Virus record (IMG/VR): IMGVR_UViG_2645728091_000009
DNA: 7,057 bases
Reading direction: 5' to 3' (one strand)
Origin: a virus
Lineage: Duplodnaviria > Heunggongvirae > Uroviricota > Caudoviricetes
In this document: piece by piece, positions 396 through 7,057 of the stretch
Layout: the number at the start of each line of letters is the position of its first letter
Numbering within the stretch: the first letter of the stretch is position 1
The notes under the pieces: model-generated
Database searches by the model: none
What the model was told of the DNA's origin: nothing
What the model saw: the letters and a program-made list of their open reading frames with translations, nothing else
Position numbers and translations under genes: made by a program

Positions 396-471
396 TGGTG
401 GCCCTTGCTGGATTTGAACCAGCGACCTGGCGATTATGAGTCGCTCGCTCTCACCACTGAGCTAAAGGGCC
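396..471 (-). tRNA. ileZ: tRNA with anticodon CAU (Met or lysidine-modified Ile2; ileZ-like)
   Basis: Manual cloverleaf: acceptor GGCCCTT/AAGGGCC, D stem GCTC/GAGC, anticodon loop CTCATAA, T stem GCTGG/CCAGC with loop TTCAAAT, discriminator A, encoded CCA. Met versus Ile2 identity cannot be decided from sequence alone. Confidence 0.8.
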
Positions 472-511: not shown

Positions 512-1570
512 TCATCCGTTCTGGCTGACTAAATCCTGTACTTCCCGAACCGTCTGCTCAAAACGTTCAGTCTCCAGCTCAACGCCAATTGCACGACGCC
601 CGAGCGCCAGTGCCGCTTTCACTGTCGAACCCGACCCCATGAAAAAATCTGCAATCAGGTCACCCGGACGACTGCTAGCGCTGATTATCTGCTGCAGCAT
701 TTCTGCCGGTTTTTCGCACGGATGTTTCCCGGGATAGAACTGCACCGGTTTATGCGTCCACACATCGGTATACGGCACCTGCACCGTCACGCCAAAATAC
801 CGCCGCAGATGCTTATATTCACTCAGCAGTTCCATATACTGCCGGTTCAGCTCACTGTATGTGCTGACCAGTTGGTAATGGGACTTTTCCAGTTCTCCCC
901 GCTGATGTTTCTCTTCTGCCACCCGGGCAAACAGCGACTGTAATTTCAGATAATCGCTTTCGTTCGGTAGCTGCCACTGACTGGCACTGAACCAGTGCGA
1001 CACCATGTTTTTCTTTCCTGTGGCATCTGCAATCTGTTTTGCCGTTATCCCAAGAGCAGCACGCGCATCACGAAAGTAAGAAATCAGCGGGGCCATCACA
1101 TGCTGTTTCAGTGCCCTGCCCTTCGCCTCATCGCCATCATCTTTCGGACGATACGGCCCCTGATAATGTTCCGCGAACAGAATGCGTTCTGTGGCCGGAA
1201 AATACGCCCGCAGGCTTTCCTTGTTGCACCCGTTCCAGCGTCCGGACGGCTTCGCCCAGATAATATGGTTCAGCACATTGAAGCGTTCACGCATCATGAT
1301 TTCAATGTCAGATGCCAGGCGATGGCCACAGAACAGGTAAAGACTTCCGGCAGGTTTCAGCACCCGCCAGAACTGCGCCAGACACTGGTCCAGCCACTTC
1401 AGGTAATCATCGTCGCCCTTCCACTGGTTATCCCAGCCCTCGGGCTTCACTTTAAAGTATGGCGGGTCTGTGACTATCAGATCGACAGAGTTTTCCGGTA
1501 AGGTCTGGATAAATTCCAGGCAATCAGCGTTGATTAACTCACAACTGGATATTTTTACAGTATTAGCCAT
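512..1570 (-). CDS. DNA methyltransferase, beta-class amino-MTase (N6-adenine or N4-cytosine), probable phage orphan methylase
   Basis: 352-aa ORF. DPPY motif (motif IV) at residues 35-38 (IVTDPPYF) and AdoMet-binding FxGxG motif near the C-terminus (DFFMGSGST, about residue 300). Motif order IV then I defines the beta class. No adjacent restriction endonuclease gene. Confidence 0.8.
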   Translation of the reverse strand: MANTVKISSCELINADCLEFIQTLPENSVDLIVTDPPYFKVKPEGWDNQWKGDDDYLKWLDQCLAQFWRVLKPAGSLYLFCGHRLASDIEIMMRERFNVLNHIIWAKPSGRWNGCNKESLRAYFPATERILFAEHYQGPYRPKDDGDEAKGRALKQHVMAPLISYFRDARAALGITAKQIADATGKKNMVSHWFSASQWQLPNESDYLKLQSLFARVAEEKHQRGELEKSHYQLVSTYSELNRQYMELLSEYKHLRRYFGVTVQVPYTDVWTHKPVQFYPGKHPCEKPAEMLQQIISASSRPGDLIADFFMGSGSTVKAALALGRRAIGVELETERFEQTVREVQDLVSQNG

Positions 1571-2142: not shown

Positions 2143-2709
2143 TCAAAAAGCAATAACTTTTTTCTCTATACCAAAAGCCATAACCATTGGTTTGTACAAA
2201 ATAAATTCTGCCACCTTTAGCCAATGCTCAATGCGTCTTTCACAGGTTCTTAAACTCCATTCCGGATGTGCATCATTCAGCAGTTCAGCCATTTTGCGCT
2301 TAGTCATCCCCCGCCCCACATAACGCTGACTCAGAACATTGAGCAGCCCGGAATAACCTGCCAGTACTTCACCAATAACCCTGTCGATTATTAACGCCTC
2401 TGAATCGGTACAATGTGCCAGCCAGCTTTTTTGATTGCCGTTGATCATATCCCGCAAAAAAGCCTCAAGTTCAGGTTTGTCCAGACCCGCTTTTTTCATC
2501 CTCCGGAGCGCCTCGTTAATTGCCGTTTTTGTCAGCTTTTTAGAGGTCAGTAATTGGTTGAACATATTTCCCGTCTTACCGTCGCCAATATACGACCAAC
2601 GCCCCCACATACGCAGTTTCCCCTGGATCCAGACACTTTCCAGCGTTTTCAGGCGTAAATGCTCACCGCTTTTGCCTGTAATTTCCGGGTATATCATATT
2701 TATGCTCAC
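2143..2709 (-). CDS. Late-gene antitermination protein Q candidate (phage 82 / QuuD-like family)
   Basis: 188-aa ORF whose start overlaps the rusA stop (ATGA). Sits in the canonical rusA -> Q position. Motif RMWGRWSYIG...QLLTSKK resembles the WGxW...LITSK region of QuuD-type Q proteins as I recall them. Not confirmed by search. Confidence 0.55.
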   Translation of the reverse strand: MSINMIYPEITGKSGEHLRLKTLESVWIQGKLRMWGRWSYIGDGKTGNMFNQLLTSKKLTKTAINEALRRMKKAGLDKPELEAFLRDMINGNQKSWLAHCTDSEALIIDRVIGEVLAGYSGLLNVLSQRYVGRGMTKRKMAELLNDAHPEWSLRTCERRIEHWLKVAEFILYKPMVMAFGIEKKVIAF

Positions 2710-3071
2710 TCACTTTCAATTTTGTAAATCTTCACGCCCAGCCGCCCACCAGAAACGAGCTGACCGCGCACAATATTGATTTCATCAAACTGCTCGTCGT
2801 CTATAAGTAGTCCGGCATGCGTAAGCGCATCCAGTGGTGCCTTCAGGATATTGTCCAGGTCGCGGCGGCGCTTATCCGGTGGCTCTGCAATAATCTTTAT
2901 CGCCAGCCTTCCGGACAGGTTTAATTTCAGCCGCTGCTGGCGAACAATAAGTGCCACATCCCGGCGATAACGCTCACCGGCTTTTGACACAAAATATGTG
3001 CTGCCACGACGTCGCCAGTAGGTGTTCACCGTCGGCGGGTAAGGCAAAACAAATTCTATGCGTTCAGTCAT
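2706..3071 (-). CDS. rusA: Crossover junction endodeoxyribonuclease RusA (Holliday junction resolvase)
   Basis: 121-aa ORF with the RusA hallmarks: N-terminal PYPPTVNTYWRRRG, DKRRRDLDN catalytic acidic cluster, LDALTHAGLLIDDEQ; size matches 120-aa RusA. Confidence 0.9.
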   Translation of the reverse strand: MTERIEFVLPYPPTVNTYWRRRGSTYFVSKAGERYRRDVALIVRQQRLKLNLSGRLAIKIIAEPPDKRRRDLDNILKAPLDALTHAGLLIDDEQFDEINIVRGQLVSGGRLGVKIYKIESE

Positions 3072-4127
3072 TCATGCTTTCCACTTCAGGACACCCGAAT
3101 TTCTCGCGTGCATTAAAAAACGAATCAGCAACAACAGCTGGCTGCCGTGTTTTTCTTCAAAATCTTTTACCCCGGCGTGCAGTTCGTTATGACATTTACG
3201 GCACAGCGGAATAACAAACAAATCATCAGCCTTTGTTCCCATCCCTCCCAGTCCATGACCAATGATGTGATGCGGATCATCTGCCTGATTACCGCACGTC
3301 ATGCATTTCTGCGTTTTTACCCAGCGCGTGTATACAGGCATCTCTTCCCGTTGTGGTTTCTGGCGCTGGAGATACTGAGCCGGTGACTCCGGATCAACGG
3401 CAATGCTGACCACCGTCTTTTCCTGTGGCGGGTTTTGCTGGTGGGCGTGAGGCAGCAGCGCAAGATTTTTTGTGCGCTGCTTCAGTATGCTGGTGGCGGT
3501 CTGCTCTCCCGGTACGATGTCGCTTTCGCGGTACACCGAGCGGATTTTTTCCGCACGCAATCCCAGAGAACGACGTAATACTGCCTCCGGCAATACGTCC
3601 GCTACCTGATTGCAGACCGCCCACCAGGATAATTCAGCCAGCGATAACTCCCGCTCCTGTGTACCGTTTATTGCGTGGCGGATGACGTCAATCATCCAGG
3701 ATGTCAGGTTTTGTTGAGCAAGTTGCCCGAGTGATTCTGAAGTCTGGTCGCGTAACTGATTATCACAGTGCCAGCACAATACCATCGCGCCGGTACCGTA
3801 ACGATGTATGACGGTTTCACTGTGGTGGTAGTCACCATGAGGCCACTGGCAGGATTTAACATGGCGTAACAGCCAGTCAGACAATGCGCCAGCGCCGCCA
3901 GCAGCACGAGTCACCCGCTCATCGCTGAAAAATGGCAGTAATGATTTATCTTCCGCGAGCGGCTGGCGCACGGCAGGAACAGCTCCTGACGGCAGACCGC
4001 GCATGCTTTTCGGTTCCGGCTCCACCAGCACCCGGGGATTATGAAATACCTGTATGGATTCACGGCCCGGCTTAAGGACCACCAGCCCGAGTTCCGGTAC
4101 CAGAACAGGTCGAAGTAATACCCGCAC
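3072..4127 (-). CDS. YdfU-like (DUF968) prophage protein with a C-terminal YbcO/DUF1364-like Cys/His zinc-binding, putative nuclease domain
   Basis: 351-aa ORF, translationally coupled to both neighbours. C-terminal CMTCGNQADDPHHIIGHGLGGMGTKADDLFVIPLCRKCHNELH follows the C..C...H...G..GTK..DL...C..CH.E pattern I recall for YbcO-type proteins. Size matches Qin YdfU (349 aa). Confidence 0.75.
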   Translation of the reverse strand: MRVLLRPVLVPELGLVVLKPGRESIQVFHNPRVLVEPEPKSMRGLPSGAVPAVRQPLAEDKSLLPFFSDERVTRAAGGAGALSDWLLRHVKSCQWPHGDYHHSETVIHRYGTGAMVLCWHCDNQLRDQTSESLGQLAQQNLTSWMIDVIRHAINGTQERELSLAELSWWAVCNQVADVLPEAVLRRSLGLRAEKIRSVYRESDIVPGEQTATSILKQRTKNLALLPHAHQQNPPQEKTVVSIAVDPESPAQYLQRQKPQREEMPVYTRWVKTQKCMTCGNQADDPHHIIGHGLGGMGTKADDLFVIPLCRKCHNELHAGVKDFEEKHGSQLLLLIRFLMHARNSGVLKWKA

Positions 4128-4867: not shown

Positions 4868-4887
4868 AAAAACCCGCCGAAGCGGGT
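4868..4887 (-). terminator. Rho-independent terminator after the HTH-peptidase gene; left copy of a 20-bp direct repeat
   Basis: Minus-strand RNA ACCCGC-UUCG-GCGGGU followed by UUUUUUGUUUUU. The 20-mer AAAAACCCGCCGAAGCGGGT (plus strand) is identical to 6703-6722. Confidence 0.7.
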
Positions 4888-4891
4888 ATAC

Positions 4892-5998
4892 TCAAACAAT
4901 CTGGAAAATATTTCTTGGATTTGTAATAGGTCTGTTGATGGAGAACAACTCACGAATTAAATCTTGGCTCAAGCCAGTTTTCATAAGAATTCTTAGCCAA
5001 GTTGCATCATCCAGCATTTCAATCGCCTCGGCCAGCATGCCGGGTTCTTCAGGGCGCAAAAGTTCATCACCAGGTTCAACTCTCGTATACCCTCTGGAAT
5101 TAAGATGCATATAGCCAGTTCTTGCCTGTTCCTGGGTCAATAAGCCTAATGCGCTGGCTCGATAAATACACATTTTAAGGCTGATTTTCCATCTAAGTTT
5201 AAATTCAACCAGAGCATTCCAGTCGAATTGCTTACCTCGTATTCGTGGAAATTCTTTAATGAAAGATAACCTGGGAACTAATAAGGCGCTCGAAAAGTGA
5301 TCGGCTTGTGATTCCGTAAGTTTATCACCTGTCGTTATGCCCTCATGCATTACTAAATGCCCTAATTCATGACCTAAATCAGAGCGAAATCTACATATGC
5401 TTTTTTTAACATTGTTCCTGATGATAACAGGCCTGTTATTGTGAACAGTAAAAGCATCAACACGATCATCGACTCCCGTAACATGCGCAACGATTACCCC
5501 TAAACTCTCCGCCAATTTAACCATTGATGATATAGGGCCAAGACCTAAATTCCAGGCACGGCGACAATCTTCTGCCACTCGCTCAATATCATTCGGAGTA
5601 AGTAATTCAGCCCCTGGGTGCTCCGGTATGTTAACGTCAGGAAATTCGATTTCACCTTCAACAGCAGAAATTATAATATTAAGAATCTCAGCCCTGGCCA
5701 ATACACTATTAGTCAGCGTTTGAGTCCTGGACTTCTTACTCCGAAAATGGCAGACATCACTTTCCAGAGCGTATTTTCGTTCAGTAAAAAGAAAACTGGA
5801 CTTAATCATAAGCGCTGAAGATATTAACTCAAGACATTGCTCCGATGGCCTGCACCCCTTCTCCAGTTTGCTAACGAATTGCTTTGTCTTGCCAATTTTT
5901 TCGGCTAACTCTTCACAAGAAAGCCCAACAGCCATTCTCGCTAGTTTGAGCTTATCACCCCGATACTCAGTGAAGTTATTCACCTGATGTTCCATCAC
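4892..5998 (-). CDS. XRE-family HTH fused to an ImmA/IrrE-type (COG2856, Peptidase_M78) Zn-metallopeptidase; candidate antitoxin/regulator of a two-gene module
   Basis: 368-aa ORF. N-terminal HTH (LKLARMAVGLSCEELAEKIGKTKQFVSKLEKGCRPS). HExxH at residues 210-214 (HELGH) with downstream ESQADHFSSALLVP matching the E...A..FA..LL.P third-ligand region of ImmA/IrrE peptidases. About 120 aa of C-terminal extension without recognisable motif. Start (GTG 5998 or ATG 5995) overlaps the upstream gene. Confidence 0.88.
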   Translation of the reverse strand: MMEHQVNNFTEYRGDKLKLARMAVGLSCEELAEKIGKTKQFVSKLEKGCRPSEQCLELISSALMIKSSFLFTERKYALESDVCHFRSKKSRTQTLTNSVLARAEILNIIISAVEGEIEFPDVNIPEHPGAELLTPNDIERVAEDCRRAWNLGLGPISSMVKLAESLGVIVAHVTGVDDRVDAFTVHNNRPVIIRNNVKKSICRFRSDLGHELGHLVMHEGITTGDKLTESQADHFSSALLVPRLSFIKEFPRIRGKQFDWNALVEFKLRWKISLKMCIYRASALGLLTQEQARTGYMHLNSRGYTRVEPGDELLRPEEPGMLAEAIEMLDDATWLRILMKTGLSQDLIRELFSINRPITNPRNIFQIV

Positions 5999-6626
5999 TG
6001 CTCACATCCAAATCTTTATCCTTCGTACGCCGACGAAGAGGCACCTTATTAATCTCCGCTTCGTCAGGGAGTGTGTTATAATCAAGAGACATAAGCGGCA
6101 TCGATGCTGTAGATTGATGAGAAACTATACTAATCTGAGCACCATAAGTATTAAATCCAACAAGAGCTACCTCCCAACGAGGCAGTGTGGACTCTAATTC
6201 ACCATCGCCCTCTTCGGATAAAAAAGGCTCAGCTATGACTCGCCATGTAATATCTTGCTCAGCCTCAACATCACCAAACAATGAGAGCTGCTCATACTCT
6301 ACTTTATTTCGACGCAGACGATGTTTCTTTTTGGGGTTATTAATGCAATCTTTGGTAAATTGTAGCGGAACTTTATTTAAAGCAACTACATAGTCCAACC
6401 CCTTGGAAATCATCTCAAGGCCAGGAATTGCATCTTCATTTTGAATAAGATGATTTCTGACCCAATCATAAGCCCTTACACCTTCAGACCAGTTGCTGTC
6501 TAATGCGTGCTTATGATAGTACAGCTGCTCAAGTACGTTAGCGATCTCCGCCAACAAGTGGCGAACATAGTTTTCAGCAAGATAAGGTTGAAATTCCCAA
6601 CAAGGAGCTAACTGATTTTCATTCAT
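5976..6626 (-). CDS. Hypothetical 216-aa protein with no recognisable domain, co-operonic with the HTH-peptidase; candidate toxin/effector partner
   Basis: Long ORF in an AT-rich segment whose 3' end overlaps the downstream gene start by 23 nt. Acidic C-terminal half and a basic patch (NPKKKHRLRRNK). No TM segment or catalytic motif I can identify. Weak RBS. Confidence 0.7.
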   Translation of the reverse strand: MNENQLAPCWEFQPYLAENYVRHLLAEIANVLEQLYYHKHALDSNWSEGVRAYDWVRNHLIQNEDAIPGLEMISKGLDYVVALNKVPLQFTKDCINNPKKKHRLRRNKVEYEQLSLFGDVEAEQDITWRVIAEPFLSEEGDGELESTLPRWEVALVGFNTYGAQISIVSHQSTASMPLMSLDYNTLPDEAEINKVPLRRRTKDKDLDVSSDGTSGE

Positions 6627-6661
6627 TTCAAGTTTCGCTTTTTTTAGAATTCGTAAACCAC

Positions 6662-6690
6662 ATATTTTCGCATTTTTCTATTTTTGTCAA
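6662..6690 (-). promoter_or_regulatory. Candidate sigma70 promoter of the two-gene cassette
   Basis: On minus strand: perfect -35 TTGACA (plus 6685-6690) followed 15-17 nt later by an A/T-rich -10 region (TGcGAAAAT / AAATAT), about 40 nt upstream of the 216-aa start. Confidence 0.4.
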
Positions 6691-6702
6691 CCAGACTAAT
6701 GC

Positions 6703-6722
6703 AAAAACCCGCCGAAGCGGGT
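6703..6722 (-). terminator. Rho-independent terminator downstream of hok; right copy of the 20-bp direct repeat
   Basis: Minus-strand RNA CCCGC-UUCG-GCGGG followed by UUUUU. Identical 20-mer to 4868-4887. Confidence 0.5.
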
Positions 6723-6791: not shown

Positions 6792-6947
6792 TTACTCCTC
6801 AGGTTCGTAAGCTGTGAAGACAGCGACCTCCGTCTGGCCGGTTCGGATTCGTACCTCGCAGAGGTCTTTCCTCGTTACCAGTGCCGTCACTATGACGGTT
6901 AAACAGATGACGATCAGGGCGATTAACATCGCCTTTTGCTGCTTCAT
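6792..6947 (-). CDS. hokD: Hok/Gef-family type I toxin (small membrane-damaging peptide), HokD/RelF-like
   Basis: 51-aa product from the internal ATG at 6947: MKQQKAMLIALIVICLTVIVTALVTRKDLCEVRIRTGQTEVAVFTAYEPEE. It has the Hok signature (hydrophobic helix, TRK.LCE, conserved C-terminal region) and matches HokD as I recall it. RBS AGGAGA 9 nt upstream. The in-frame 64-aa extension in the ORF track is probably not used. Paralog assignment (hokD versus hokC-like) unverified. Confidence 0.8.
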   Translation of the reverse strand: MKQQKAMLIALIVICLTVIVTALVTRKDLCEVRIRTGQTEVAVFTAYEPEE

Positions 6948-7057
6948 AGCCTGCTTCTCCTGTGTAAGTTCACAGAGATATTGCAATTGCCTCCGGATAA
7001 GTAAGGGGAGATTGCACTATGCAAATGCAGCATCTGATGGTTGGCTATCCTAAGTAC

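Follow-up and report, generated by a model that had tools for sequence, protein, structure and literature searches.

The 7,057-nucleotide (nt) stretch of the IMG/VR record IMGVR_UViG_2645728091_000009 considered here (hereafter the window) corresponds to the late-regulatory region of an Escherichia coli lambdoid prophage that is Qin-like, and all of its genes lie on the minus strand. Our subject is an open reading frame (ORF) for a 216-residue protein at positions 5976–6626, together with the gene for a helix-turn-helix (HTH) peptidase that follows it. We judge it highly probable that the product of this ORF is RmrT, the toxic member of a two-gene module of the RosmerTA type, and more closely of its Vmi480/Vmi470 subtype. 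To the best explanation taken as a whole, namely a RosmerTA toxin cassette that operates by toxin-antitoxin logic and whose likeliest target is the replication clamp, we assign a probability of roughly 0.8. The features on which the argument turns are the following:

5976–6626, minus strand: rmrT, predicted 216-amino-acid (aa) toxin gene of the Vmi480 family (ORF with ATG at 6626 and TAA at 5978–5976)
6303–6341, minus strand: codons of the RmrT basic patch N96–K108 (NNPKKKHRLRRNK), from the sequence and the family alignment
6276–6290, minus strand: codons of Q113-L-S-L-F117, an exact match in the sequence to the β-sliding-clamp-binding consensus QL[S/D]LF
4892–5995, minus strand: rmrA, predicted 367-aa antitoxin gene (XRE-type HTH, Peptidase_M78/COG2856 and a C-terminal region; from Pfam HTH_3 and Peptidase_M78, PADLOC and the RefSeq coding sequence)
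5357–5371, minus strand: codons of the HEXXH zinc-binding motif of RmrA, H209-E-L-G-H213, from the sequence
5976–5995, minus strand: the 20 nt shared by the rmrT 3' end and the rmrA 5' end (ATGGAACATCAGGTGAATAA), from the sequence and the RefSeq start
6633–6693, minus strand: promoter-like region with a perfect –35 element, TTGACA (6685–6690), and two tandem 28-nt repeats
4868–4887, minus strand: terminator hairpin just past the rmrA stop, one copy of a 20-nt direct repeat
6703–6722, minus strand: terminator hairpin of hokD, where the 20-nt direct repeat occurs again and the cassette has its upstream boundary

The gene rmrT is real and conserved. That it is not a chance ORF follows from a ratio of nonsynonymous to synonymous substitution (dN/dS) of 0.073 (0.023 for rmrA, both measured against Enterobacter homologues), from 69 relatives recovered by profile search, and from its intact presence across E. 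coli genomes. When the comparison is made with Serratia and Xenorhabdus, synonymous sites are saturated and the proteins are still 53–64% identical. The initial annotation of this DNA, made without database searches, had named disruption of the ORF in most homologous loci as the kind of finding that would speak against it; instead, of 5426 complete E. coli genomes, 237 (~4%), strain ABU 83972 among them, carry rmrT, with 236 at a coverage of at least 80% and 224 records at an identity of at least 99%. No pseudogene flag appears on any of 30 sampled rows, one of which covers just 78% of the gene. The RefSeq counterpart of the product, WP_001004956.1 (identical or 99% identical), is labelled “hypothetical protein”, the usual annotation in E. 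coli being a “hypothetical protein” beside a “helix-turn-helix domain-containing protein”, and a literature search for WP_001004956 gave nothing. Some relatives of the toxin are damaged, being frameshifted, truncated, or having the C-terminus replaced after about residue 160 (P0013, from Salmonella; P0014; P0016, from Plesiomonas). These are exceptions, and such inactivated toxins are to be expected in decaying prophages.

The product looks soluble, as had been said of it from the outset: no transmembrane helix is expected, because the highest 19-residue Kyte-Doolittle mean is only 0.84. The acidic C-terminal half (22 D/E vs 8 K/R over residues 109–216, isoelectric point 4.18) and the basic patch (seven K/R among the 15 residues at 96–110) described for it are likewise borne out, and within the patch P98 is present in 52 of 61 family members, with PKKxHRL kept within one subgroup. 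The description of rmrT as the most AT-rich stretch of the window needs amendment. It is AT-rich (41.8% GC vs 48.3% for the window), but its partner is equally so (41.9%), and the composition is a property of the whole two-gene cassette, not of rmrT alone.

As to classification, the initial annotation had reported no recognisable domain. This holds for Pfam and NCBIfam, neither of which contains a match to RmrT, but it does not hold for PADLOC, where RmrT matches the RmrT model PDLC03929 (E = 8.5e-26, residues 7–209 of 216), or for PHROGs, where it matches phrog_5786 (E = 5.9e-85), a family of unassigned function. A profile search of PDB sequences with RmrT yielded a chance match only (E = 0.83). 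The partner matches the PADLOC RmrA model PDLC03943 at E = 6e-105, and also the capP (E = 1.6e-14) and capH (E = 1.5e-4) models. Because PADLOC calls the overlapping genes RmrT and RmrA, we read rmrT-rmrA as a RosmerTA system; the locus has an HTH plus M78 peptidase with HEXXH and, adjacent to it and co-oriented, a gene matching an RmrT model. Judged by its sequence, the HTH-M78 protein is the predicted antitoxin partner of RmrT. It was Millman et al. (2022; 10.1101/2022.05.11.491447) who established RosmerTA as a defence system whose antitoxin is a Zn-peptidase, citing Luo 2015 and Rousset 2021 as prior toxin-antitoxin examples. The class is thus already known, in that defence hidden Markov models (HMMs) call the pair and the characterisation of a homologous toxin-antitoxin dates from 2015, and what we describe is not a new system. 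The early suggestion of a toxin/antitoxin or sensor/effector pair formed with the HTH-peptidase is supported by the PADLOC call and by homology to Vmi480/Vmi470.

The Vmi480/Vmi470 pair is carried by the mobilisable genomic island MGIVmi1 of Vibrio mimicus, whereas RmrT/RmrA is carried by a lambdoid prophage. Expression of vmi480 alone kills E. coli, co-expression of vmi470, which encodes an HTH-Zn-peptidase, rescues the cells, and deletion of the antitoxin gene vmi470 by itself is not possible (Luo et al., 2015; PMC4671572). Using the cloning primers of these workers, we located a pair of this type in Vibrio thalassae, where the two ORFs (198 and 362 aa), the 5-bp spacer between them and the primer-matching termini agree with the published Vmi480/Vmi470. 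On comparison with our pair, Vmi480 aligns to RmrT by BLASTP at E = 4e-15 (25% identity over 177 residues) and by hhalign with 97.7% probability (E = 2.5e-12, 178 columns), Vmi470 is 47% identical to RmrA across its full length (E = 1e-123), and the two match PDLC03929 and PDLC03943, just as RmrT and RmrA do. In both modules the toxin comes first, the promoter is the module's own, and the sizes are similar (198/362 vs 216/367 aa). They differ in the junction, which is a 5-bp spacer in the one and a 20-nt overlap in the other, and RmrT has a longer acidic insert (residues 136–147) and a longer tail than Vmi480.

A further pair, E101_02645/E101_02644 from a prophage of E. coli E101, is 33%/42% identical to Vmi480/Vmi470; this module makes clpP essential, an effect that is suppressed by the toxin substitution T46S (Rousset et al., 2021; 10.1101/2020.05.25.114553). 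The E101 toxin, like RmrT, has no predicted domain, its pair is again prophage-borne in E. coli, and sequence comparison would place it, by transitivity through Vmi480/Vmi470, in the same family as RmrT/RmrA. Because their accessions differ (WP_001179380.1 and WP_001004956.1), the E101 toxin is probably a different allele or subfamily from RmrT; WP_001179380.1 was not found among the cluster members of ten family representatives. For these homologues, then, it has been shown that the toxin kills E. coli and that the partner neutralises it, with Clp proteolysis aiding control in the E. coli module. Toxicity alone and neutralisation by the partner have also been shown for RipAB of Streptococcus pneumoniae and for the pair of phage Kita (PMC12795458, PMC10440598).

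This polarity bears on the idea that the roles are reversed or shared, with the HTH-peptidase as the toxic effector and the 216-aa protein as its inhibitor or sensor. Such is the arrangement in PD-lambda-2, in which the Xre-peptidase PD-lambda-2B is toxic, PD-lambda-2A rescues, and the peptidase gene is again the second (Vassallo et al., 2022; PMC9519451). The first gene of PD-lambda-2 is, however, HigB-like, and that system includes a third component; neither is present here. Given in addition that vmi480 is lethal alone, that vmi470 is not deletable alone and that co-expression rescues (PMC4671572), and that RipA/RipB and the E101 module have the same polarity as Vmi480/Vmi470, a reversal of roles strikes us as very improbable.

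The initial annotation put the overlap of the two genes at 23 nt. An overlap does exist, but the figure of 23 nt is obtained only from an alternative GTG at 5998; counted from the RefSeq ATG at 5995 (367 aa), which is most likely the true start of rmrA, it is 20 nt. Across homologous loci the junction consists of overlaps of 20, 20, 14, 8 and 1 nt or of gaps of 2, 5 and 53 nt. It is the tight linkage of toxin and peptidase that is conserved, and not the exact length of the overlap.

The profile search, run against 1.84 billion representatives, returned its 69 proteins at E < 1e-3. Nearly all of them are 190–235 aa long, and they occur in Aeromonas, Pseudomonas, Yersinia, Photobacterium, Pseudovibrio and further genera, mostly under the name “hypothetical”. 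A few (P0092, P0154, P0157, P0143) go under the names “peroxidase” or “alkylated DNA nucleotide flippase Atl1”, which are probably propagated mis-annotations without support in sequence. Co-occurrence with COG2856 genes, a check proposed at the outset, was assessed on sampled contigs encoding family members, and a Peptidase_M78 gene of 366–377 aa lies directly downstream of the toxin in all ten distinct loci (13 places read), these being from Xenorhabdus, Serratia, Enterobacter, Photobacterium, a metagenome-assembled genome labelled Alphaproteobacteria in NCBI, Allosphingosinicella, and a metagenome.

The DNA around the two genes delimits the module. Comparison with a Qin prophage of the K-12 type (rem-hokD-relEB) shows promoter, rmrT and rmrA together to be a precise insertion of 1,815 bp (4888–6702); on either side of it stands a perfect 20-nt copy of the hokD terminator, AAAAACCCGCCGAAGCGGGT (4868–4887 and 6703–6722). 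Because both copies form hairpins resembling terminators on the coding strand, the cassette comes with a terminator of its own, and the module is a self-contained unit of 1.8 kb (promoter, rmrT, rmrA, terminator) inserted behind hokD. The repeats suggest that the cassette may have arrived by insertion at, or recombination through, the terminator hairpin. Within the promoter-like region, the tandem repeats have the form GGTTnAC-N14-GCGAAA, lie at 6666–6693 and 6633–6660 with a spacing of 33 bp, and are candidate operators for the HTH of RmrA. The –35/repeat region is kept in the Enterobacter and Serratia loci despite synonymous-site turnover, and in part in Xenorhabdus. A simple promoter scan did not flag 6633–6693, because the –10 element is weak, and no canonical Shine-Dalgarno sequence precedes the rmrT ATG.

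Close homologues occupy moron positions in lambdoid prophages. More distant members (~25% identity) lie in an integrase-flanked island, at a type I restriction-modification (R-M) locus, and between type III-like R-M genes and a TIR gene with BrnTA; such R-M, TIR and toxin-antitoxin surroundings are suggestive of typical defence neighbourhoods. On plasmids, tblastn with RmrT found two near-identical E. coli copies only.

These settings can also be read to mean that the module is not chiefly anti-phage, but serves for addiction or regulation, stabilising the prophage or coupling stress (Clp proteolysis, DNA damage) to growth arrest. It is always on mobile DNA (prophages, the integrase-flanked island, plasmids), RmrA belongs to the ImmA/IrrE peptidase family and matches the CapP/CapH models as well, the physiological role of RipAB is in competence, a role in defence not having been demonstrated (PMC12795458), and defence has been demonstrated for other RosmerTA subtypes only. 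On the other hand, some members have type I or type III R-M genes or a TIR gene as neighbours, those other subtypes do protect against phages, and the cassette, a moron that brings its own promoter and terminator, comes without an integrase or a repressor partner. We accordingly regard a chiefly non-defensive role as unlikely, and addiction and defence are in any case not mutually exclusive.

As to how the toxin might act, RmrT carries at residues 113–117 the pentapeptide QLSLF. The clamp-binding consensus is QL[S/D]LF, with QxxLF and the hexapeptide QLxLxL as further forms, and a QLSLF peptide binds E. coli DnaN, the β sliding clamp, at sub-micromolar affinity (PMC12309361). The pentapeptide sits inside a string, EYEQLSLFGD, that the initial annotation had quoted, overlooking its identity as a clamp motif. 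An exact match arises in 70 of 200,000 shuffles of RmrT. When both a pentapeptide class, Qxx[LMF][FL], and a hexapeptide class, Q[LMIV]x[LMF]x[FL], are scored, 45 of the 61 family members have a motif at the aligned site, against five of 61 with one elsewhere in the protein. Among the variants are QLSLPL, which is identical to the tight-binding clamp peptide of PMC12309361, and QISLEL, the hexapeptide-type motif that Vmi480 has where RmrT has QLSLF. The RmrT peptide that would pair with DnaN is VEYEQLSLFGDVE. That the target of RmrT is the DnaN pocket, reached by way of QLSLF, is a proposal we advance tentatively, at somewhat less than even odds, on the strength of the motif and its conservation.

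The predicted structure gives the motif a context. AlphaFold run from 15 close sequences produced a poor model, with a mean predicted local distance difference test (pLDDT) score of 65.5, and from the 61-sequence alignment a usable one, with pLDDT 85.6 and a predicted template modelling score (pTM) of 0.75. In the latter, two N-terminal helices are followed by three strands, the short helix 108–115, three further strands, and a disordered acidic tail. The motif closes the short helix, with residues 116–126 modelled as coil, and an indel-rich acidic linker comes next. A Foldseek search of the model against the PDB, which had been proposed as a check, returned nothing at E < 1e-3, and the modelled fold would appear to be without a convincing solved relative. 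The best conserved polar positions are D43 (55/61), E110 (56/61), Q113 (49/61), R129 (54/61) and E/D133 (53/61). A PD-(D/E)xK nuclease was considered and then downgraded: structure scores are weak, only 23 of 61 members retain D78, the Asp expected ahead of strand 2, and strand 3, with (R/Q)89-F-x-(K/R)92, has no acidic residue. We do not file RmrT as a nuclease, because the canonical catalytic positions are not conserved.

The same region admits a second reading, to which we give close to an even chance, that RmrT is a RosmerTA toxin and the clamp is not its target. ExxQLSLF would then be a structural helix or a site at which RmrA docks or cleaves, and toxicity would stem from some other activity, on a degenerate nuclease-like fold or otherwise. 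Conservation at positions i, i+3 and i+6 (E110, Q113 and L116) and a pLDDT of ~77–90 around the motif fit this picture. So does the recurrence of the motif in RmrT families whose common feature is an RmrA partner, and the conserved polar set of D43, R/Q89, E110, R129 and E133 could form an active site. The nuclease-like variant is weakened by the scores of inositol monophosphatases and hot-dog folds, which roughly equal those of the nucleases, and again by the 23/61 retention of D78 and the R/Q-F-x-K/R sequence, lacking an acidic residue, at the (D/E)xK position; for the cleavage variant, no cleavage-site specificity of RmrA is on record. A structural helix or a recognition/cleavage handle for RmrA is the main alternative to clamp binding, and the two readings could both hold if RmrA masks the motif.

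Returning to the clamp-binding proposal, two other groups of toxins bear on it. One is that of OLC-716, a verified RosmerTA from E. coli which, like RmrT/RmrA, consists of an upstream toxin and an HTH-Zn-peptidase antitoxin, and which protects against phage (Millman 2022; 10.1101/2022.05.11.491447). Its RmrA is 29% identical to the RmrA described here, with HEXXH kept in both. RmrT itself is barely related in sequence to the OLC-716 RmrT, BLAST being negative, hhalign giving a probability of 14%, and the HMMs being different (PDLC03935 vs PDLC03929). We built an alignment of the verified OLC-716 RmrT and seven homologues encoded on plasmids, each of the seven having a gene for an XRE-family regulator or ImmA/IrrE-peptidase (~354–375 aa) directly after it. 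The family has a mid-protein consensus N..QLDLF in an indel-rich linker, with the variants QIDLF, QLDLF, QLSLF, QLELDL and QLKLDL, and despite its 14% probability the hhalign alignment of Vmi480-type with OLC-716-type toxins is collinear, with the motifs paired. As far as the searched literature shows, a conserved consensus clamp-binding motif in the Vmi480-type and OLC-716 RmrT families is new.

The other group is that of RipA (Spr1630), the Rosmer toxin of S. pneumoniae. RipA interacts with DnaN, its suppressor mutations all fall in the hydrophobic pocket of the clamp, and ripB and clpX are both essential because of it, the role demonstrated for RipAB being in competence induction and not in phage defence (Maziero et al., 2025; PMC12795458). 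That study names no clamp-binding motif in RipA. Taking RipA and RipB from a metagenome by the published primers (RipA = L019:6545–7276), we find RipB (Spr1629) to be 25% identical to RmrA (E = 4e-26), and RipA to match PADLOC PDLC03931. As a homologue of RmrT, RipA was rejected: hhalign gives a probability of 0.1% against RipA and 0.3% against a RipA alignment, and the PADLOC models differ. RipA has an N-terminal MLNQDLFD, and its few relatives have in common an N-terminal xDLFD and, at mid-protein, an invariant Q[ML]EL[VI]SD (residues 141–147).

In the SocAB system of Caulobacter crescentus, the toxin SocB blocks replication by binding the β clamp, and ClpXP removes SocB. A clamp-pocket poison made harmless by Clp proteolysis is the mode of action we propose for RmrT. 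SocAB has no sequence relationship to RmrT/RmrA, SocA is a proteolytic adaptor and not an HTH-metallopeptidase, and the system is chromosomal and is not known to be linked to phage defence. A different set of parallels exists on the antitoxin side. ImmA/ImmR, IrrE/DdrO and CapP/CapH have in common with RmrA the M78/COG2856 peptidase fold and HEXXH, the peptidase in each of them cleaving a separate HTH repressor, whereas in RmrA the HTH and the peptidase are fused and the partner is a toxin.

Several points weigh against the interpretation as a whole or against its clamp component. No recognisable motif is present at the site in 16 of the 61 members. The region of the motif is fairly ordered in the AlphaFold model (pLDDT ~77, helix 108–115), and the spacing of the conserved E110, Q113 and L116 would also suit one face of a structural helix, so that the motif may be buried. 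The target of RipA is not transferable to RmrT, because there is no detectable homology between the two. RmrT toxins are, moreover, heterogeneous: phage Kita also has an anti-phage RosmerTA, and its RmrT depolarises membranes (PMC10440598). For the pair in the window, toxicity, neutralisation and defence are extrapolated from homologues at 25–47% identity, anti-phage activity having been shown for RosmerTA subtypes other than PDLC03929/PDLC03943, and a tblastn search with RmrT of 50,697 sequenced phage genomes gave no match.

The mechanism that we favour can be set out as follows. Both rmrT and rmrA would be transcribed from one promoter, and RmrA, probably binding the two tandem operator-like repeats, would repress its own operon. 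RmrA would also neutralise RmrT, as has been shown for the homologous Vmi480/Vmi470, with ClpP additionally needed to hold the toxin harmless, as in the homologous E101_02645/02644 module. Upon failure of this control, presumably when a phage infects, free RmrT would halt the cell, giving abortive infection. RmrT may dock through Q113-LSLF into the hydrophobic protein-binding pocket of DnaN, in competition with polymerases, and would thereby block replication in the way reported for the unrelated RipA. In its most general form the proposal would be that the Vmi480, OLC-716 and RipA families are all sliding-clamp poisons acting through an internal motif, QL[S/D]LF or QLxLxL, which RmrA and ClpX(P) mask or remove until infection; we hold this broader version to be less likely than not.

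RosmerTA is widespread, and a biochemical action is known for hardly any of its toxins. Placement in the Vmi480 family ties RmrT to a toxin in use as a counter-selection marker and to the homologous module that makes clpP essential, and the conserved clamp motif offers a concrete and cheap test of toxin mechanism. Were clamp targeting to be confirmed, the 2025 result for RipA, obtained with a single pneumococcal toxin, would come to cover much of the Rosmer family, and the replication clamp would join the short list of abortive-infection targets. If several RmrT families poison the clamp, RosmerTA would be largely a matter of abortive infection by replication arrest, with this E. coli cassette as a convenient model. 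If the clamp reading fails, an ordinary and correctly classified defence/toxin-antitoxin cassette remains.

The other genes of the window, all on the minus strand, are these:

222–298, 312–388 and 396–471, minus strand: three tRNA genes (Arg-UCU, Arg-UCG and a CAU-anticodon Met/Ile-type, respectively)
512–1570, minus strand: N6/N4 DNA methylase
2143–2709, minus strand: DUF1133 Q-like antiterminator
2706–3071, minus strand: RusA
3072–4127, minus strand: DUF968/HNH protein
between the DUF968/HNH and rmrA genes as listed, minus strand: two small phage ORFs
within the ORF listed at 6792–6986, minus strand: hokD, annotated at 51 aa

Lambdoid and Stx-type (Shiga toxin) prophages typically have tRNA genes where these lie, downstream of the methylase gene. 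To the right of hokD (~6964–7057), homology to the usual hokD-relEB arrangement ends. In UTME-9, the one fully matching genome, this flank is annotated as an “integrase core domain-containing protein”, which points to an insertion sequence element in place of relE/relB. In some genomes, among them strain FORC 064 (locus 5572–8720), what lies downstream of the cassette has given way to the type III effector genes nleB2, an nleC fragment, nleH and nleF; the cassette is thus also found in effector-carrying lambdoid prophages of strains like enteropathogenic and enterohaemorrhagic E. coli (EPEC/EHEC).

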